Part shown: positions 17,470 through 27,357 of the stretch, piece after piece
How the letters are laid out: each line of letters opens with the position of its first letter
Position numbering within the stretch: the first letter of the stretch is position 1
Assembly: GCA_035605035.1 (NCBI GenBank)
Contig: DATNHI010000106.1
Location: 849-64,848 of the forward strand
DNA length: 64,000 bases
Direction of reading: 5' to 3'
Origin: Verrucomicrobiia bacterium
Lineage (GTDB): Bacteria; Verrucomicrobiota; Verrucomicrobiia; Limisphaerales; UBA11358
Translations under genes and position numbers: made by a program
The notes under the pieces: model-generated
The model's input: only the letters and a program-made list of their open reading frames with translations
Database searches by the model: none
Told to the model about the DNA's origin: nothing

Positions 17470-19185
17470 TTACTGTTCGGCAGCTTGCGGCGGAATATTT
17501 GTATAACTGGCGTCTTCATGCACCCGATTGCCGGCAGGGTCAATGATTGTTGCGGTGACAAACACGAGCGTGTGCCGATTAAGAGAGTTTGTTTTGCTGC
17601 CATCAAGTTCTGCAAGCGCGGCGTCTGTTTGAACTTGATTGTCCTTCAGTCCAAAAACCAGCGTCTGATCGTCAAAAAGATTTACTGAATTCGTTGTTGA
17701 TTGCACACGAAATTGAGGCGACACCGTTGGCACGTCAATTTCCTGCCCGGCTGAATTATAAGCTGGTGTCGTGTTTGTAGATTGAGCGTAACCCAAAAAT
17801 TCAACCACCGAAGCGATGACAGGCAATTCGATGGTATAACTGTCAGGCAGCACGCGCGGTATCGCGTCGAGAACCGGTCCCGTTTCAACATTTTCAGTTT
17901 GAGGAACAATGCTGGAAGTGCCATTTGTTTCTTGAAGGCAAAAATTGGTCACGACAGAAATAATCTGTGTTGCCCGCATTTGAACTTGGCGTCCGCTGGT
18001 TAACACCACTTCTGGTTCGGCGAGAGTTTCAACATCATTGCGTGAGCGTAATTGCTTTAACGCAATACGGAAGTTTTCGTCGGTAAGAATACCGGCACTG
18101 GTCGAATCATACCAACCGGCAGATACGTCTTTCGGCATCGTCAGAAATCTTGCTTTGATGTGGATTTGCGGGATGGACGAATTGGTATCCGGACTAAAAC
18201 GCAAATGTGACGATGTTTGCAACGGGCGATTTTTTTCGGCGAGTTCGTCAAGCTGTCGCCGCAAGACGCCGGTTTCACCGCGTAATTTCAGCAATTCGTC
18301 AAATTGGTCTTCTGATAATTTTTTTGCATCGCCAACTTGAGCGAGACGATTTGAATAACTTTCGTTGTCCGTTTGCAATTGCGCGATTTGTTGGTTCAAC
18401 GACGTTTGCTGTTGTTGCAATGCGCCGATTTGTTTTTGCAATTGAATCGAGTAAATGCCGCTGCCAATTGCGGCGACGGCAAATCCAGCGATGAGAATTT
18501 TGTGAATCATAGTCATTCCGAGGGTTGTAGTTGTTAAGGCGACGGTGGTTGAAATTGTAGCGGCCAATCCAACCGGTGCGGATTGGACGGCGTTGGCGGA
18601 AATCAGAACCGCCAGTCCGCTCGCGCCAATCGTCACGTTACGTTTCGATAAAAATTCGCGCAGCCGCTCCACGGCGCGGCTGACGCGCTTTTGCGCGGCA
18701 TCGTCGCTCACGCCGAGCGCCCGGCCAACGGCGCGGAAATCCTGGTTCCGGAAAAAACGGAGCAACAAGGCTTCGCGGTCTTCTTCGCCGAGGCTGTCGA
18801 GCGCTTCATCCAGCGCTGGCCGGATTTGTTCCCAATCTGCGGAAGGTCCGGCATTGGAAAGAAATTGATTCATGGCTTGCCTTTCGTTTGCGAGCCGGCG
18901 CCGGTCATCGCGCAAATGCTTGAGCGCCGCATAGCGCGTGGCACGGTGTAGCCAGCCGGCCAGTGAAGCCTCCACCGCCAGCCGTTCGGCCACCGATCCT
19001 GCTTTGCGCGCCAGGTCCACAAAAACTTTTTGAGCAATGTCTGCCGCCAAATCGGCGGATTCCACCTGCCGCAAGGCGGCGGAATACACGAAGTCCGTGT
19101 GGCGCGTGACGATTTCGCGGAACGCGGCTTCGTCACCGCGCTCGGCGTAGTCGCGGAGCAGTTGGACGTCGGATTTGTCGCTCAC
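17470..19185 (-). CDS. ECF sigma domain / TM / coiled-coil / secretin-like C-terminal fusion protein (paralog A)
   Basis: N-terminal sigma r2/r4 (FREIVTRHTDFVYSAALRQV...LLLRFFRNQDFRAVGRALGVSDDAAQKRVSRAVERLREF). TM segment MIHKILIAGFAVAAIGSGIYSI. Q-rich coiled coil. C-terminus LAEPEVVLTSGRQVQMRATQ...GPVLDAIPRVLPDSYTIELPV...HTLVFVTATIIDPAGN resembles the secretin domain pattern. Confidence 0.75.
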   Translation of the reverse strand: MSDKSDVQLLRDYAERGDEAAFREIVTRHTDFVYSAALRQVESADLAADIAQKVFVDLARKAGSVAERLAVEASLAGWLHRATRYAALKHLRDDRRRLANERQAMNQFLSNAGPSADWEQIRPALDEALDSLGEEDREALLLRFFRNQDFRAVGRALGVSDDAAQKRVSRAVERLREFLSKRNVTIGASGLAVLISANAVQSAPVGLAATISTTVALTTTTLGMTMIHKILIAGFAVAAIGSGIYSIQLQKQIGALQQQQTSLNQQIAQLQTDNESYSNRLAQVGDAKKLSEDQFDELLKLRGETGVLRRQLDELAEKNRPLQTSSHLRFSPDTNSSIPQIHIKARFLTMPKDVSAGWYDSTSAGILTDENFRIALKQLRSRNDVETLAEPEVVLTSGRQVQMRATQIISVVTNFCLQETNGTSSIVPQTENVETGPVLDAIPRVLPDSYTIELPVIASVVEFLGYAQSTNTTPAYNSAGQEIDVPTVSPQFRVQSTTNSVNLFDDQTLVFGLKDNQVQTDAALAELDGSKTNSLNRHTLVFVTATIIDPAGNRVHEDASYTNIPPQAAEQ

Positions 19186-19362: not shown

Positions 19363-20988
19363 TTATTGACGTTTTGGAAAATCCCGGCCATCCACAACCG
19401 TCGGCGTCACAAACATCAAGAGGCTTTTTGGCCCAGCCGGCATATTTGTGGATCCAGGCATCCATCCATCGTCGGCCATTTCTGTTGCCATGACAACCGT
19501 CTGGCCGGGAGATAATGTCACTTGATTTGTTAATTGAATTGTCTGCACGTCCGGCTGCGAAGGATCGCCGGTCAATTGGTTTAATTTCGCTCCGAGATTC
19601 AAATTAAAAGTAGAGGAGTTGGTTGAAAAATAGGGCTTCACATCCAGGTTGACGCCGATATTCGTGTAATTCACGCTGGCATTCGCGTTTGTGCCCTCGG
19701 CGGAAAGCACGGGAAACGCCTTGGTCACGGAAATTTGAGCTTGTTCTCCATTGATGGTAACTATTCGCGGTGCGCTGATGACATTGGCGTCACTAGCCCC
19801 TTGCAACGCTTCATTGATGACCTTGAATTGCTGTCCGGTCAGTAAGCCGGTTTTTACACCGTGCGCGTCCGACTTCCACCCAACTCCAAGAACTTGCAAA
19901 TTTTCGGTGGGAAGAGAAACAAATTGTGCCCTCAAGAGAATCTGAATCTTTTCCACTTCCGGCACACTGTTCGTCTCCGTTTGCGCCGCGACCGGTAAAG
20001 CATTTTGCTGCCGCCTCAATTGCGTCATTTCGCCGCGCAATCTCAGAAGTTCCGTCTCGTTGGCGCGCAATTGTTTGTTTTCCTGTTGAAGTGACGCCAG
20101 TTGATTTGTCGCCTCGTCACGCTCCTGTTGCAATTGCTGGATTTGTTCGGTCAACGTCGTTTGTTTTTGACGCAGTGAATGAATTTGGTTTTGCAGTTGA
20201 AACGCATAAATGGTCGCACCAACAGCGGCGGCACCCAAGATGATGAAGAGTGTTTTTTGGATTGTGGTCATGGCGATGGCTTTGGTGGCGGCAATTACGG
20301 CTGAAGTGTGAACAGCGGCTCCGGCCAGAACAGCGGCGGTTGAAATGCTCGCAGCCAGCCCAACCGGCGCGGCTTGAACGGCGTTGGCGGAAATCAAAAC
20401 CGCGAGTCCGCTCGCGCCGATGGTCACGCTGCGTTTCGAGAAAAATTCGCGCAATCGTTCGACCGCTCGGCTGACGCGCTTTTGCGCGGCGCCTTCGGAC
20501 GCGCCCAAAACTTCACCGACTTCGCGCAGATTTTTGTTTTCAAAATAGCGGAGCAGAATCGCGCTGCGGTCAGCATCGTCAAGCGTGTCCATGGCTTCGT
20601 CGAGCAGCGGCTCGATTTCGAACCAGACAGGCGGGACGCCTGTGCCACTTTCGGTCGCATTCATATTGTTCATCTCCACGGCGATTTGCTCGCGCAATTG
20701 GCGGCGCGATTCCTTTCGGATTACGTCAATCGCGGTTCGGCGCGTGACGGCGTAAAGCCACGGCGTCAGGGAACTGACAGGCGGGACGCCCGTGCCACCA
20801 ATCTTGCCGGCGTCGCGCGCCAGATCGGCGAAGACGGATTGCGAAACTTCCTCAGCCAGTTGCGGTGAGCGGACTTGCCGCAACGCGGCGGAATGAACCA
20901 GATCCAGGTGCCGCCTGACAATTTCGGCGAAGGCGTCCTGTGAATTTTCCCGCGTGTATTGCCGTAGCAAATCCAAATCGCTTGTCAT
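19363..20988 (-). CDS. ECF sigma domain / TM / coiled-coil / secretin-like fusion protein (paralog B)
   Basis: Start chosen at MTSDLDLLRQYTRENSQDAFAEIVRRHLDLVHSAALRQV (ATG at 20988). The segment VSRAVERLREFFSKRSVTIGASGLAVLISANAVQAAPVGLAASIS is near identical to paralog A. C-terminus VISAPRIVTINGEQAQISVTKAFPV...IGVNLDVKPYF...LLMFVTPTVV is secretin-like. Confidence 0.75.
   Translation of the reverse strand: MTSDLDLLRQYTRENSQDAFAEIVRRHLDLVHSAALRQVRSPQLAEEVSQSVFADLARDAGKIGGTGVPPVSSLTPWLYAVTRRTAIDVIRKESRRQLREQIAVEMNNMNATESGTGVPPVWFEIEPLLDEAMDTLDDADRSAILLRYFENKNLREVGEVLGASEGAAQKRVSRAVERLREFFSKRSVTIGASGLAVLISANAVQAAPVGLAASISTAAVLAGAAVHTSAVIAATKAIAMTTIQKTLFIILGAAAVGATIYAFQLQNQIHSLRQKQTTLTEQIQQLQQERDEATNQLASLQQENKQLRANETELLRLRGEMTQLRRQQNALPVAAQTETNSVPEVEKIQILLRAQFVSLPTENLQVLGVGWKSDAHGVKTGLLTGQQFKVINEALQGASDANVISAPRIVTINGEQAQISVTKAFPVLSAEGTNANASVNYTNIGVNLDVKPYFSTNSSTFNLNLGAKLNQLTGDPSQPDVQTIQLTNQVTLSPGQTVVMATEMADDGWMPGSTNMPAGPKSLLMFVTPTVVDGRDFPKRQ
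20627..20793. repeat. two copies of the acaggcgggacgcc(t/c)gt hairpin inside paralog B (in frame)
   Basis: 20627-20643 and 20777-20793. Translated on the minus strand as ...SGTGVPPV... and ...GGTGVPPV.... Paralogs A and C lack them at the aligned positions. Confidence 0.8.
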
Positions 20989-21177
20989 GCTTTTGAAAGT
21001 ATATCGCCGCCGGACGACGAAATCCGACACAATTTCCCCGGTTGAATCCAGGCTCGACGGAGGCTTCCACCCTCCGTAGCAGAGCAACTGCGGAGGACGG
21101 GCGCCCCACCACTTTTCCCGGCGGCCGTGCGCAAGCATCTTTACTTTCGCCGTTTTGTCGCGCATTGTGGAGGCAGC

Positions 21178-21894
21178 ATGACACAACGTTATTTCAGGCT
21201 CTCGATTCTGGTCTTGGCCGGCGTGCTGGTGGCGCAAGTGGCGTCGTCCGCGGACACGACCAACCCGGCGCTGGCGAAGTCGGAGATTTTGGAAGGCAAC
21301 GTCGCCTATCTCCGCGTCAGCCACGTCGCCGCTGGCCTTTCGGATGAAATTGGCGTGGCCAACAGCGCGTTGACGACCACGAACAAAGTTGCCGGAACCG
21401 TCCTGGACCTGCGCTTTGCCGACGGTGACGATGCGGCGGCGGCGACCGCAACCGCAAATCGGCTGGCGGCAAAGAAGCTGCCCCTGGCAATTCTGGTAAA
21501 CGACGAGACGCGTGGCGCAGCGGTAACATTGGCAACGGCCTTGCGTGCGTCGCGGGCGGGGCTGATTTTCGGCAGCGTGCCGGCGGCGGTGAAACCGGAC
21601 ATTGCCGTCGCGGAAGACCCCGCCGACGAGAAAAGGTTTTTTGAAAATCCCTACGCGACGCCGGCCACCAACGCCGTCGCCGCGCTGTCCGGCACAAATG
21701 AATTTCTGCCCTGGGTGGACCATACCAGCGAAGCGGATCTGGTCCGTGCGAAAATCAAGGATGGCGACGAATTTGAAAATCCGCCGCCGCCGCACGCGGC
21801 GGGACCGCAAAAGCCGGTGATTCGCGACCCGGTCCTGGCGCGCGCGGTGGATTTGATCAAGGGACTTGCGATTGTCCGGGAATTCCATCCTTGA
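21178..21894 (+). CDS. secreted S41 (C-terminal processing peptidase)-like protein, probably non-catalytic
   Basis: Signal-like MTQRYFRLSILVLAGVLVAQVASSA. GNVAYLRVS...GTVLDLRFADGDD...PLAILVNDETRGAAVTLATAL aligns to the S41 core, but the SASASE serine motif is replaced. Confidence 0.5.
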   Translation: MTQRYFRLSILVLAGVLVAQVASSADTTNPALAKSEILEGNVAYLRVSHVAAGLSDEIGVANSALTTTNKVAGTVLDLRFADGDDAAAATATANRLAAKKLPLAILVNDETRGAAVTLATALRASRAGLIFGSVPAAVKPDIAVAEDPADEKRFFENPYATPATNAVAALSGTNEFLPWVDHTSEADLVRAKIKDGDEFENPPPPHAAGPQKPVIRDPVLARAVDLIKGLAIVREFHP

Positions 21895-21908
21895 TTTCGG
21901 GTTGACGA

Positions 21909-24122
21909 TTGGCGGTTCGCGACTCACCTTGGACTTTGCGCGGCATGAAAACCATTCTGTTCATTTGCACCGGCAACATCTGCCGCAGCCCGATGGCCGA
22001 GGGGCTTTTTCGCCGGGCGACCGACGGACGCGGGGAATACCGCGTGCTGTCGGCGGGCCTTGGCGCGGCGAACGACCAGCCGCCGACGCCGCATGCGGTG
22101 TCGGCCATGCGCGAACTGGGCATTGACATTACCGGCCACCGCAGCCGGATGCTGACGGCGGGCCTGGCGCAAGAGGCGGATTATATTTTCGGGATGACGC
22201 GCAGCCACGTGGACACGGTCGCGCTGTTGTTTCCGGAGGCGGAGGAAAAGACCTTTTTGCTGCGCGAATTCGACGAAACGCTGGAGCCATTTGAAAAGGA
22301 CATCAGCGACCCGATTGGCAGTTCCTACGAGGTGTATGTGAACTGCCGCAACCAGATCAAGCAGGGCATCGCGTCTCTTTTGAAATTTATGGAACAACAC
22401 GAAACCCCGTCGGCCGCGCCGGCGGCCAAAGCCGTGGCGACCACAAACTTTGCGCTTGGCGCCGACCACGGCGGCTACGAATTGAAAGAGGCGTTGAAAC
22501 AGCATCTGCAGCAACGCGGCTTGAACGTCACGGACTTCGGCGCGAAATCGAAGGAGCCGGCCGACGATTATCCCGACTTCGCCCAACCCGTGGCGCAGGC
22601 CGTGGCTGGCGGGCAGGCGGAGCTTGGCCTGCTCATCTGCACCAGCGGCGTGGGGATGAGCATGACGGCCAACAAAGTGCCGGGTGTCCGGGCCGCCCTG
22701 GTCACCGACGAACCGGCGGCGGCGTTGGCCCGGCGGCACAACGATGCCAATGTGCTCTGCCTCGCCGGCAAATCCACTTCCGTTGAGGCCGGCAAAAAGA
22801 TCCTCGACGCCTTCCTCGACGCGAAATTTGAAGGCGGCCGGCACGAACGCCGCGTCCACAAGATGGAGGCCCGGCCCGTGCCGCCGCAACTCCGTCTGCA
22901 GAGCGTGGATCCGGTCGTGGCCGCCGCCATCGAGCGCGAGCGGCGGCGCCAGCAGGAAAACATCGAGCTGATCGCCAGCGAAAATTTCGTCAGTCCGGCG
23001 GTCCTGGAAGCGCAGGGTTCCGTGCTCACGAACAAATATGCCGAGGGCCTGCCGAAGAAACGCTGGTACGGCGGCTGCGAGAACATTGACACCGTCGAAC
23101 AACTCGCCATTGACCGGGCAAAGCAGCTTTTTGGCGCTGAACACGTGAATGTCCAGCCGCACTCCGGCAGCCAGGCAAACATGGCGGTCTATTTTGCCGT
23201 GCTGAAACCCGGCGATAAAATGCTGACGATGGATTTGAGCCACGGCGGCCATCTGACGCACGGGAACAAGGTGAATTTCTCCGGCAAATTTTTTGAAATT
23301 GTCCACTACGGCGTGCGCAAGGACGACGAGCGGATTGACTACGACCAGCTCGCCGCCCTGGCGCGCGAGCACAAGCCGAGGATGATCACCGTCGGCGCCA
23401 GCGCCTATCCGCGCATCATTGATTTCAAACGCATGGGTGAAATCGCCCGCGAAGTCGGCGCGTATCTGCTGGCCGACATCGCGCACATCGCCGGCCTGGT
23501 GGCGGTGGGAATTCATCCCAGCCCGATTCCGCACGCGGATTTTGTGACGACCACGACGCACAAGACCCTGCGCGGCCCGCGCGGCGGATTGATTTTGTGC
23601 CGCGAAAAAAATGCAAAGGAGATTGATTCCACCGTTTTCCCCGGCATCCAGGGCGGGCCGCTGGAACACGTCATCGCGGCCAAGGCGGTTTGTTTCCAGG
23701 AAGCGTTGCAGCCGTCGTTCAAGGCGTATCAGGAACAGATTGTGAAAAACGCTAAGGCGCTGGCCGAAGGCATGAAGCGCAACGGCTACCGTATCGTTAG
23801 CGGCGGCACGGACAATCACCTGATGCTGGTGGACGTGGGTGTGAAAGACCTCACGGGCAAGGCCTGCCAGACGGCGCTCGACGAAGCCGGCATCACAGTG
23901 AACAAGAACACGATTCCGTTTGAGACGCGCTCACCGTTCCAGGCCAGCGGCGTCCGGCTGGGCACACCGGCCGTGACGACCCGCGGCATGAAGGAACCGG
24001 AAATGGCGGCCATTGCGGACATGATTTCCGAAGTGCTGCTGGACATCAAAAACATCGAGGCGGCGCACAAAGTCCGCGAACGCGTGCGCGAATTGACGGC
24101 GAAATTCCCGCTGCCTTATTGA
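21909..24122 (+). CDS. glyA: single ORF joining LMW protein-tyrosine-phosphatase, ribose-5-phosphate isomerase B and serine hydroxymethyltransferase
   Basis: aa 13-160 [17 protein letters not shown] (LMW-PTP P-loop). aa 178-320 [13 protein letters not shown]...[23 protein letters not shown]...[10 protein letters not shown] (RpiB). aa 328-737 IELIASENF...[10 protein letters not shown]...[13 protein letters not shown] (SHMT). No stop between domains. Likely start 21945. Confidence 0.85.
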
Positions 24123-25537
24123 TTGGGCGGTGGAAAAGCCATGTGCTGTTGTTCCCAAGCGCCAAAATCACCATCAGGTTCGGCGTGCAGTTGTGCATGG
24201 CCGTCCGCGAAACCATAAACCTTGACCCATTCCCCGTTGTACAACCAGGGTTGGTTTTCCCGGACAATGATGGTGGAGCCGGGGTTGGTAATGCTTTTCC
24301 ACGATCCTTGATAAACAATTTCGAGTTGACTCAAATTACTGCGAACCGAATTTAAATCGCCGCCCAAATAGGGTGCGGCCTGATCAAAGTTCGTGGGAAG
24401 CTGATCTTCGTTGGCATTTGCATACATGATCATTCCCATCACCGATTGTTTGGCGTTGTTCATCTTGAACAGGGCGGCCTTTTCCTGTGCCGCATGCAAA
24501 TCAACCTTCTCATCTTCCGATTGCTGTTGGTTTGAGGTTGCGAGATCCGGTGAGGCACGCAGCTTCCCAAGTTCGTTTGTCCGTTGGCGAAGCATTCCCA
24601 CTTCACCCCGAAGCCGCAGCAAGTCGTTGAATTGTTCATCCGTCAGTGATTTGGCTTCGCCAACCTCCGCAAGGCGGTTGGAAAAGCCTTCGTTGTCCGC
24701 ATGCAATTGCGCGATTTGCTGGCGCAAAGACGTGTTTTCGTCACGCAATTGAGTTTGGGTTTGATGTTGAACCACCAAAGCGGTTGTCACGCCAGCCACG
24801 ACCAGCGCGCTGACGCCGAGTTTCAGTTGGGTTGCAGTCATAATTTTCAAAAGTGTAAGGGGGGTTCCTGCGCCGGCGGCAATCGAAGCAGTCGAAAGCG
24901 TCGCGGCCAGGTTTGCGGGCGCCAGTTGGACCGCGTTGGCGGAAATCACGGACGACAGCGCGGTCGCCGTCGTGATGCCGCGTTTGGCAAAAATGGTGCG
25001 GAGCTTTTCGAGCGTCCGTTCCACCCGCATCCGCGCGGCGTTTTCGTTGAGGCCAAGCTTCGCGCCGAGTTCGGCGAATTGCTGGTTCTCAAAATAGCGC
25101 AGCAAAACGGCTTCGCGGTCGGTTTCTCTCAGTTCGTGCATGGCGTCGTCCAGCACCGGGCGAACCATTTCCCAATCGGCTTCGGACCCGGGTTGGGCAG
25201 ACGGGGTGCCCGATCCGCTATTTTGAATCGGTTCACGCATAAATTTTTCCTCGCGGTCGCGCCGGCGATTTTCCGTCCGCACGATTTTCGCGGCGGCAAA
25301 GTGAGTGCTGGTATAAAGCCAGCCGGTCAACGTTTCGCGACGCGCAAGCGAACCCGCCTTGCGCGCGAGGTCGGTGAAAACAGTCTGCGCCACATCCTGT
25401 GCCAGATGCGCATCGCCGTTGACCTGTCGCAATGCGGCGGAAAAGACCAGATTGACGTGCCGCCGCACCAGTTCGGCGAAGGCGTCTTCAGAATTGGTGT
25501 TGGCGTAACAACGCAGCAGTTCGGTATCCGGCGTCAT
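24116..25537 (-). CDS. ECF sigma domain / TM / coiled-coil fusion protein with a different C-terminal domain (paralog C)
   Basis: [39 protein letters not shown]... (ATG at 25537). TM and coiled coil as in A and B. C-terminus ...[27 protein letters not shown]... is not secretin-like. 7-nt convergent overlap with the glyA end. Confidence 0.75.
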
Positions 25538-25658
25538 GTGCAACTTATAGCACCCGCCGAAACGGAAATCGCACAAGAAAAAAGACACGGATTTCAACGA
25601 TTTGCACGAATGGAAACCGCGCAAAGCCGGTAGATGATCATTCGTGTAATTCGTGTCT

Positions 25659-25735
25659 AAAAATCTCTTTGACAACGCGGTCAAGGTGCGGCATTCTAGC
25701 TGTGAGTTGACTGCGAAATTCCCTTGCCGTGTTGA
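25659..25735 (+). pseudogene. ghost glyA 3' end
   Basis: gagttgactgcgaaattccc versus real gaattgacggcgaaattccc (18/20). Reads ...[14 protein letters not shown](frameshift)PC* versus real ...[17 protein letters not shown]. Confidence 0.7.
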
Positions 25736-25866
25736 GGCTGCGCTGCCTCAGACGCTCGGTTGATGTAATCCATTTTGAACTTTTCCGGCCATCGGGCGTC
25801 CAATGCGTGACGGCCTTTCTGTCCGGCAATTGGAATCCGGTCAATCCAACCAGTTTAATTTTGTTT

Positions 25867-27357
25867 ATGCCAAGAGTTTCAACGAGAAAAGCCAAAGCTA
25901 AACCGGTCGCGGAAGTTCCCGCGGCAGCACCGCCGGATTTGAATAACGGCGCGGTGGCCACAGAAACCGCCGTCGCCGAACCGTCGGGTTCCGCCGACTT
26001 GCAGCCGCCGTCCACACCGGTCGAACTGGCCGAAGAGCCGAAGGTGGAGGAGCCAAAGGTAGAAGAACGCCGCGGCCCGCAACGCGACAAAATTGTCACG
26101 TCGCTCAACATCGCCAAGCTGCAGGCCATGCAGATGAGCGAGTTGAACCACATGGCGCGCGAGTTGGGGGTGGAAAATTTCGGCACCATGCGCAAGCACG
26201 AGGTCATTTTCCACATCCTCCAGAAAAACGCCGAACGCGCGGGGGTGCTGTTTTCGGAAGGCGTGCTCGAAGTGCTGCCGGAAGGCTTTGGTTTCCTGCG
26301 TTCGCAGAGTTTCAATTACCTGCCCTGTCCGGAAGACATTTACGTTTCGCCATCGCAAATCCGCCGGTTTGACCTGCAAACCGGCAACCTCATCGCCGGC
26401 CAGATCCGGCCGCCCAAGGAAAAGGAAAAATTTTTCGCGCTGCTCAAGGTCGAGGGCGTGGACGGCGAAGACCCGGACAAGGCCAAGGAAAAAACGCATT
26501 TCGACAATCTCACGCCGCTGTTCCCGGACAAGCGGTTTATCCTGGAAACCGTGGCCGAGGAAGTGAACACCCGCGTGCTCGATCTCGTTTGTCCGATTGG
26601 CAAGGGCACGCGCGGTCTCATCGTCGCGCCGCCGCGCACGGGCAAGACCGTGCTCATGCAGAAAATCGCCAACGCCATTCTCAAAAACAACCCGGAGACC
26701 TACCTGTTCATCCTGCTGATTGACGAACGGCCGGAGGAGGTCACCGACATGGAACGCACCTGCCGCGGCGCGGAAGTGATTTCGTCCACGTTCGACGAGC
26801 CGCCGGAACGCCACGTGCAGGTGGCCGAAATGGTCATCGAAAAGGCGCGCCGCATGATCGAACACAGGCGCGACGTGGTGATTCTGCTCGATTCCATCAC
26901 GCGCCTCGCCCGCGCCTACAACACCATCCAGCCGCACTCCGGCAAAATCCTGTCGGGCGGCGTGGACGCCAACGCGCTGCACAAGCCGAAGCGCTTTTTC
27001 GGCGCGGCGCGCAACATCGAGGAAGGCGGTTCGCTCACCATCATCGCCACCGCGCTGGTGGACACCGGCAGCCGCATGGATGAAGTCATTTTTGAAGAGT
27101 TCAAAGGCACGGGCAACATGGAGGTGCATCTCGACCGCGCACTGGTGGACCGCCGCATTTTCCCGTCCATCAACGTCGAGATGTCCGGCACGCGCAAAGA
27201 GGAACTGCTTTATCATCCGGACGAGTTGAGCCGGATTGTGCTGCTGCGCCGCGCGCTCACCGGCGTGCCGCCCGTCGAGGCGATGGAACTGCTGTTGGGC
27301 AAATTGAAAAAGACCAAGAGCAACATCGAATTCCTCCTGAGCATGACGGTGAGCTAG
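25867..27357 (+). CDS. rho: transcription termination factor Rho with an N-terminal low-complexity extension
   Basis: [21 protein letters not shown]...[14 protein letters not shown]...P-loop PPRTGKT...[25 protein letters not shown] at 25867 preferred over ORF track start 25729. Confidence 0.9.

Follow-up and report, generated by a model that had tools for sequence, protein, structure and literature searches.

A stretch of 64,000 nucleotides from a Verrucomicrobiia bacterium (contig DATNHI010000106.1, assembly GCA_035605035.1), referred to below as the window, contains a gene at positions 21945..24122 of the forward strand in which a low-molecular-weight phosphatase (PTP), ribose 5-phosphate isomerase B (RpiB) and serine hydroxymethyltransferase (SHMT) are joined in one reading frame. 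This gene very probably encodes one polypeptide of about 79 kDa composed of three independently folding, catalytically competent enzymes, which would have arisen by the loss of stop codons in a (tsaC)-ptp-rpiB-glyA neighbourhood. The fusion gene is real, as the preliminary description of the stretch had proposed, and the architecture itself is not new. What is modestly new is the mosaic of alternative fusions among tsaC, ptp, rpiB and glyA, together with the change from Thr to Val or Ile in the phosphatase that accompanies fusion.

Extent of the gene and its three domains

The open reading frame (ORF) extends from 21909 to 24122 on the forward strand without an internal stop and has 737 codons when counted from TTG. 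The TTG at 21909 marks only the limit of the maximal ORF. The true start is almost certainly the ATG at 21945, because protein P0001 (NCBI HXR03956.1, from a metagenome-assembled genome, MAG, of a Verrucomicrobiae bacterium) is 100 % identical over exactly 725 amino acids and because homologues share the corresponding N-terminus, MK(T/N)(I/V)LF, in about 100 of 120 close cases. Counted in this way, the gene has 725 codons followed by a TGA stop; the 737-codon frame reported earlier does exist from TTG, and it is the length of the product that has to be corrected to 725 residues. The database name of HXR03956.1 is just "ribose 5-phosphate isomerase B", with no mention of the other two domains. 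The GC content is even across both junctions, at 0.58-0.67. A tblastn search of the window found no second copy of PTP, RpiB or SHMT and no tsaC, and a promoter and terminator scan of positions 20900-24400 returned counts equal to the shuffled expectation, with no support for internal promoters or a terminator. An antisense ORF of 631 amino acids (21924..23819, reverse strand), the translation of which is rich in Arg, Ala and Gly, lies opposite most of the fusion gene; it is a shadow ORF of the kind usual for genes of high GC content and bears no sign of being a gene itself.

The ORF and the Pfam matches agree with the earlier description of three complete enzyme domains with short, stop-free linkers between them; the linkers measure about 18-23 and about 10-14 residues. 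The YwlE-like low-molecular-weight phosphatase domain comprises residues 1-150 (21945..22394), delimited by Pfam, the closest structures and the invariant residues. The family LMWPc (PF01451) matches residues 4-146 over the full-length profile (1-144 of 144, E 4.5e-31, 108.4 bits against a cutoff of 23.2). The RpiB domain, residues 169-307 (22449..22865), is matched by LacAB_rpiB (PF02502; residues 170-307, profile 2-138 of 138, E 2.5e-53) and by the NCBIfam rpiB equivalog TIGR01120 (165.8 against a cutoff of 138.65, profile 3-140 of 143). The SHMT domain, residues 318-725 (22896..24119), is matched by SHMT (PF00464; residues 318-694, profile 1-399 of 399, E 5e-168) and by the NCBIfam family NF000586 (652 bits against a cutoff of 335, profile 1-403 of 404). 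E-values of such size for three domains are not attributable to chance. Between the domains lie linker 1, which is rich in Ala, Pro and Thr (residues ~151-168; 22395..22448) and is recognised by low conservation and low predicted local distance difference test (pLDDT) values from AlphaFold2, and linker 2 (residues ~308-317; 22866..22895), which is recognised by its variable sequence. The domains and linkers are all on the forward strand.

All three domains are predicted to be active, because the catalytic motifs are intact in each. In the phosphatase, the signature C-X5-R-(S/T) is present as C8-TGNIC-R14-S15, within the P-loop C8-T-G-N-I12-C-R14-S15 (CTGNICRS) read directly at 21966..21989 (+), and the general-acid D-P motif is Asp122-Pro123; residues C8, R14, S15, D122 and P123 are invariant among 49 homologues. 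The catalytic Cys232 of RpiB (22638-22640) lies in LICTSGVG and is of the E. coli Cys66 type, not the Mycobacterium Glu type. The other active residues of this domain are Asp174 and His175 (GxDHxG), His265 (RHND), and Arg299 and His300 (GGRH), and its catalytic residues are unchanged even across distant double and triple fusions. The pyridoxal-5'-phosphate-binding Lys540 of SHMT (23562-23564) is found in the T-T-T-H-K motif, which is invariant among the 49 homologues, and the motifs SENF, NKYAEG and HGGHLTHG are present as well. The closest solved structures, of YwlE, RpiB and SHMT, each align over essentially the whole domain: the RpiB domain scores 133 bits against C. thermocellum RpiB (3he8), with the catalytic residues aligned, and the SHMT domain scores 585 bits end-to-end against S. 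aureus SHMT (3pgy, chain residues 10-413). An AlphaFold2 model of the full protein, computed from a 49-sequence alignment of just 81-100 % identity, is confident for the phosphatase (pLDDT ~80-93) and RpiB domains; residues 153-164 of linker 1 have pLDDT <50 and are predicted to be disordered.

Distribution of the fusion and of its unfused counterparts

A word-indexed protein search found at least 120 distinct clusters at 90 % identity, the proteins of which are 81-90 % identical to the window protein and 708-748 amino acids long. Each cluster has all three Pfam domains, and the source assemblies, with contigs of up to 847 kb, are from NCBI, JGI and ENA. Mean conservation is 0.84-0.94 in the domains, 0.69 in residues 147-169 (linker 1) and 0.71 in residues 308-321 (linker 2), and the linker indels in homologues are small and always in-frame. 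Three more distant clusters with the complete triple fusion emerged from an exhaustive HMMER search of 1.84 billion representatives at 50 % identity: P0121 (61 % identical), P0123 (45 %) and P0183, with the member P0271 (38 %). The preliminary description had proposed searching relatives for the same fusion and examining the junctions in other assemblies for stops or frameshifts: the fusion recurs in all of these clusters, no such interruption was found at the junctions in other assemblies, and more than 120 independent clusters keep the frame. Taken at the level of sequence comparison, the fusion is conserved under purifying selection in a Verrucomicrobiota clade.

The divergent triple-fusion proteins, as called, begin with 'MAE...', just past the P-loop. 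The idea that these forms (708, 709, 718 and 683 amino acids) represent lineages devoid of a P-loop was rejected. They are gene-caller start errors and not truncated domains, because the upstream DNA or a longer member encodes the P-loop in frame: the DNA upstream of the 'MAE...' start reads MKTVLFVCTGNVCRSP in L081 and ...LKNILFVCTGNVCRSP in L083, L084 behaves likewise, and the P-loop of the P0183 cluster is visible in P0271. The sequence restored in the divergent fusions is MK..LFVCTGN(V/I/S)CRSP. A separate observation concerns the metagenome proteins P0183, P0271 and P0272 (683-702 amino acids), in which the SHMT domain is degenerate: the TTTHK motif reads VGGTGATMRGPG, and SENF and NKYAEG are lost. 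The RpiB and phosphatase motifs of these proteins are intact, with the P-loop CTGNSCRS, and the SHMT domain may be a pseudo-SHMT.

Genomes of GTDB species were scanned with an alignment of residues 1-400, and domains were classified in stop-to-stop ORFs; the loci so obtained sample the species genomes and do not amount to a full count. A search with a degenerate DNA pattern spanning the junction of RpiB and SHMT was dropped in favour of this alignment, as the junction motifs are too variable among distant fusions. Among the matches listed, the three genes occur unfused and in the same order in Marinococcus (L026), Desulfoscipio (L055), a Planctomycetales MAG (L025) and an Omnitrophica MAG (L033), which is direct evidence for the earlier statement that the domain order reproduces a conserved gene order, PTP -> rpiB -> glyA. 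The genes rpiB and glyA are often separated by one same-frame stop, in MAGs labelled Acidobacteriota, Actinomycetota, Alphaproteobacteria (including Pelagibacteraceae), Marinimicrobia, Nitrospiria and Selenomonadaceae, with junctions such as '...QALEE*VDYKF' (L028) and 'KKIK*IMSSEG' (L030); other tightly adjacent pairs occur in Gemmatimonadota, Myxococcota and Ignavibacteria. Same-frame, single-stop pairs were observed in L005, L012, L016, L020, L021, L027, L028, L030, L031 and L032. In several of these, glyA begins 0-2 codons after the stop; by chance, one pair in three would share the frame. In the JCVI minimal genome, rpiB is co-transcribed with glyA and must be read through into it (PMC6755753), and ptpB adjoins glyA in S. 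aureus (PMC8001253). Because the unfused PTP -> rpiB -> glyA order and the single-stop rpiB/glyA pairs exist elsewhere, the view that an operon has been welded into one polypeptide is well supported by comparative sequence data.

Partial fusions of several kinds were found in the same scan. The triple fusion is represented, by domain classification, in the window, in L081-L084 and in L001, a MAG labelled Akkermansia muciniphila. RpiB-SHMT fusions occur in L002-L004, L006, L007, L009, L010, L013-L015, L022 and L024 and in the proteins P0122, P0124, P0126, P0131 and P0191, with clusters named Victivallales and Kiritimatiellae. A PTP-RpiB fusion was classified in L035, and a direct PTP-SHMT fusion with no RpiB between (P-loop CTGNICRS) lies at 2923-4803 of L037, a MAG labelled Chthoniobacteraceae. 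In L067 (Chthoniobacterales), the phosphatase and SHMT genes lie side by side as separate genes, the phosphatase with Thr at P-loop position 5. Fusions of TsaC (Sua5/YrdC, PF01300) with the low-molecular-weight phosphatase (L004:2374-3465, L011:2272-3459, L025:2368-3450, L033:2329-3420 and L080:1107-2381) are situated directly upstream of rpiB in MAGs of Verrucomicrobiota, Sedimentisphaerales, Planctomycetales and Omnitrophica. They mirror the B. subtilis order ywlC-...-ywlE.

The closest published counterpart is Minf_1669 of Methylacidiphilum infernorum V4, which was singled out as unusual for its combination of SHMT, low-molecular-weight phosphatase and RpiB domains and was linked to the methylotrophic serine pathway, with a suggested connection between serine and pentose-phosphate metabolism (Hou et al. 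2008, Biol Direct 3:26; PMC2474590). The window protein likewise has all three domains in one polypeptide and comes from a member of the same phylum; the organism and order are different, and the two proteins are putative orthologues, judged by the published domain composition and the phylum only. The serine pathway cannot be the general rationale of the fusion, because the fusion is broadly distributed in non-methanotrophic MAGs of Verrucomicrobiota. In the literature searched, Minf_1669 is mentioned in one paper only, with no later paper found, and no paper was found on rpiB/glyA fusions, on fusions of Sua5 with a low-molecular-weight phosphatase, or on Akkermansia together with SHMT and RpiB. 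The architecture is published and abundant in databases, and is biochemically uncharacterised in the literature found; consequently, the window gene is not novel as an architecture.

Other known systems resemble the fusion in part. The B. subtilis cluster ywlE-ywlF(rpiB)-ywlG-glyA encodes the same three products in the same order, whereas in Bacilli the genes are separate and an extra gene lies between rpiB and glyA. The RpiB-SHMT fusions of Kiritimatiellia, Victivallales/Lentisphaerota and other Verrucomicrobiota share the RpiB -> SHMT junction and the conserved catalytic residues. They differ in that the phosphatase is not fused; it is a separate gene immediately upstream in L002, L004, L009 and L024, with Thr at position 5 in three of these four. 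Among metagenome proteins, other enzymes are fused N-terminally to SHMT, as in dihydrofolate reductase (DHFR)-thymidylate kinase-SHMT, DHFR-SHMT, FolB-SHMT and MeaB GTPase-SHMT (P0136, P0139, P0155 and P0185). Those with folate or nucleotide enzymes (P0139, P0136 and P0155) follow the same principle as the window protein, an enzyme of a connected pathway N-terminal to SHMT; however, the DHFR, thymidylate kinase and FolB partners have an obvious folate or dTMP link, and the phosphatase partner has none.

Phosphatase specificity and alternative explanations

By overall sequence, the phosphatase domain is placed in the YwlE subfamily, since YwlE structures clearly outscore those of Wzb and YfkJ (B. 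subtilis YwlE 4kk3/1zgg, 86.9 bits; Geobacillus YwlE 4pic, 81.7; Wzb, 68.9; YfkJ, 48.4). The arginine phosphatases YwlE, PtpB and DARP are the closest subfamily overall and share the CX5R(S/T) P-loop and the DP general acid. They differ from the window domain, in which an aliphatic residue (Ile/Val) takes the place of Thr and which shares its polypeptide with two metabolic enzymes. In YwlE, PtpB and DARP, specificity for phosphoarginine is due to Thr at P-loop position 5, and Ile is usual in phosphotyrosine-specific low-molecular-weight phosphatases (PMC7772506; PMC8001253), in agreement with what the preliminary description had stated in reporting the CTGNICRS P-loop. Position 5, which is Thr11 in the phosphoarginine phosphatase YwlE of B. 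subtilis, is Ile12 in the window protein. In 110 readable sequences from the 120 close homologues, the residue is Val (91), Ile (18) or Leu (1), and never Thr. It is also Val or Ile in distant triple fusions and fragments (V in P0121 and P0213, I in P0123 and P0221) and Ile in the PTP-SHMT fusion L037. The one exception is Ser in P0271, the SHMT domain of which is degenerate. Copies beside rpiB that are free-standing, fused to TsaC or part of a PTP-RpiB fusion (18 in total) have Thr in 14 cases, Ser in two, and Ile and Gln in one each; the copies with Thr include those of genomes from the PVC group (Planctomycetes, Verrucomicrobia and Chlamydiae) and Planctomycetota.

The domain is thus YwlE-like by descent, with the YwlE specificity residue lost. 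This loss was probably a single evolutionary event in the fused clade. Because aliphatic Ile or Val replaces the Thr that selects phosphoarginine, the domain is most likely no arginine phosphatase of the YwlE kind and would act on phosphotyrosine or another phosphoester.

The alternative that the N-terminal domain is a true YwlE orthologue, a phosphoarginine phosphatase that opposes a McsB-like kinase and is merely carried along with rpiB and glyA, is quite improbable. It would account for the best solved relatives being the B. subtilis and Geobacillus YwlE proteins (82-87 bits, against 48 for YfkJ), for the domain occupying the ywlE position of the conserved gene order, and for the YwlE P-loop, CTGNTCRS, in unfused PVC-group relatives. 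It is contradicted by the residues at position 5, both in the close homologues (Val, Ile or Leu in 110 of 110) and in the distant triple fusions P0121 and P0123. In addition, McsB is mainly a Firmicutes protein. The T11I mutants of YwlE, PtpB and DARP lose their preference for phosphoarginine and gain activity on phosphotyrosine or p-nitrophenyl phosphate (PMC7772506; PMC8001253).

A second alternative accepts the continuous ORF and holds that mainly separate proteins are made from internal starts (for example RpiB-SHMT from Met149, or SHMT from Met307), so that the fusion would be a transcriptional or translational packaging device. The candidate initiation sites exist, Met149 being invariant and Met307 being present in the window, and RpiB-SHMT proteins devoid of the phosphatase do occur in related lineages (P0122 and P0124; L003, L007, L014 and L022). 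Nevertheless, Met307 is found in just 62 % of close homologues, linker 1 is without a conserved start codon, and the sole promoter-like match inside the ORF (23194-23221) is at chance level. Stops in the linkers would not be selected against unless read-through mattered, yet zero homologues have one. Production from internal starts is consequently given little credence.

An assembly or sequencing artefact, in which a lost stop or a frameshift joins three separate genes of a MAG contig, is extremely improbable, and this explanation is already effectively refuted. The window does derive from a metagenome-assembled genome, and with rpiB and glyA one same-frame stop apart in many phyla, a single base error could mimic a fusion. 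However, such an error does not account for at least 120 non-identical clusters from independent assemblies in which the frame is continuous despite linker substitutions and in-frame indels, nor for the equally continuous clusters at 38-61 % identity. The base composition is even across the junctions, and the same three-domain composition is reported from the finished genome of a cultured isolate (PMC2474590). Finally, the chance that the N-terminal domain is an ArsC-type, thioredoxin-coupled arsenate reductase is close to nil, and an identity of the pI258 type was rejected: the common fold yields weak matches to NCBIfam arsenate reductase families (48-58 bits) and to PDB ArsC chains, but the scores are far under the curated cutoffs (57.7 against 215 and 52.8 against 174.3 bits), the Cys82/Cys89 relay is missing (the only Cys residues are C8, C13 and C134, with none in residues 14-133), and the phosphatase-type DP general-acid motif is present.

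Genomic setting, proposed function and significance

The fusion gene is preceded by an S41-peptidase-like ORF of 255 amino acids (21127..21894, +), which has a weak, partial match to Pfam Peptidase_S41 and ends 50 nt before the fusion gene. A gene for an S41 peptidase is also located upstream of the fusion in L081, L082 and L084, so the two form a conserved gene pair and may be co-transcribed; in L084, a tsaC gene lies between them. The counterparts in L081 and L082 have 385-391 amino acids, against 255 in the window, and the window ORF may have been truncated N-terminally by the neighbouring divergent sigma gene. Two adjacent paralogous genes on the reverse strand (17473-19185 and 19366-21012) encode sigma factors of the extracytoplasmic function (ECF) type (Sigma70_r2 + r4) with long C-terminal extensions, both of which end in a Secretin domain (PF00263), an unusual combination of a sigma factor with an outer-membrane secretin. 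In the gene at 19366-21012, a coiled-coil-like segment (weak TMF_TATA_bd match) precedes this end. A third ECF-sigma-like gene (24119-25684, -), with a C-terminal extension of about 290 amino acids without a Pfam match, lies between the fusion and rho. It looks like an insertion, because rho directly follows the fusion gene in L081 and L082. The Rho termination factor (25729-27354, +) has an N-terminal extension of about 130 amino acids ahead of its Rho_N domain. The gene purD lies 6 kb upstream of the fusion and is given no evidential weight.

We infer that the protein works as a trifunctional enzyme. In the proposed origin, stop codons would have been lost between the genes of a widely conserved, translationally coupled (tsaC)-ptp-rpiB-glyA neighbourhood. 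The RpiB part would make ribose-5-phosphate for phosphoribosyl pyrophosphate, the SHMT part would make glycine and 5,10-methylene-tetrahydrofolate, and these products would meet as co-substrates in purine and thymidylate synthesis. As a fusion, the enzymes would be present in a fixed 1:1:1 stoichiometry and would probably co-assemble through the dimer interfaces of RpiB and SHMT. The phosphatase may be a general protein phosphatase that is merely co-regulated; alternatively, its target may be one of the fused partners or a small phosphoester.

Several points count against this proposal. The rationale based on nucleotide precursors leaves the presence of a protein phosphatase in the unit unexplained. 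The full-length product is a prediction from sequence with regard to expression, proteomics and enzymology alike, and Met149, which is invariant, and Met307, which is present in the window and in 62 % of homologues, are candidate sites of internal initiation. In the AlphaFold2 model, which was based on a shallow alignment, the SHMT part has pLDDT <50 and the predicted template modelling score is 0.31; the model carries no information on domain packing, and co-assembly is entirely conjectural. Classical phosphotyrosine-specific low-molecular-weight phosphatases have an aromatic residue after the DP motif. The residue in the window protein is Ile (DPIG), which suggests that the domain is not a textbook phosphotyrosine phosphatase either.

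A speculative and rather unlikely extension of the trifunctional-enzyme proposal is that the phosphatase changed its job once it was tied to RpiB-SHMT or to SHMT and acquired a new, partner-directed function. Thr, the majority state in free or TsaC-fused rpiB-adjacent copies even in PVC-group bacteria, would then have been replaced by Val or Ile. Candidate substrates would be a small phosphoester or a phosphorylated residue of SHMT or RpiB, which would serve the fused protein as a built-in switch for its regulation. The active site of mammalian low-molecular-weight phosphatase binds pyridoxal-5'-phosphate tightly, and the direct PTP-SHMT fusion without RpiB (L037) would fit a phosphatase role directed at this cofactor or at SHMT. 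If this were true, the mosaic of TsaC-PTP, PTP-RpiB, PTP-SHMT, RpiB-SHMT and triple fusions would point, in the manner of a Rosetta stone, to a housekeeping function of the phosphatase subfamily that has escaped recognition.

No established concept is changed by the finding of the triple fusion. It offers a clean natural case of a translationally coupled, conserved operon that collapses to one multifunctional protein, with intermediate stages visible in relatives. Triple-fusion proteins are annotated under one function of the three ("ribose 5-phosphate isomerase B" or "glycine hydroxymethyltransferase"), and consequently glyA, rpiB or the phosphatase can go unrecorded when metabolism is reconstructed from Verrucomicrobiota MAGs. 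A testable lead on the role of this widespread phosphatase subfamily outside Firmicutes comes from two facts: YwlE-like phosphatases have been fused repeatedly, to TsaC, to RpiB and to SHMT, and the fused clade has lost the Thr of the phosphoarginine type.

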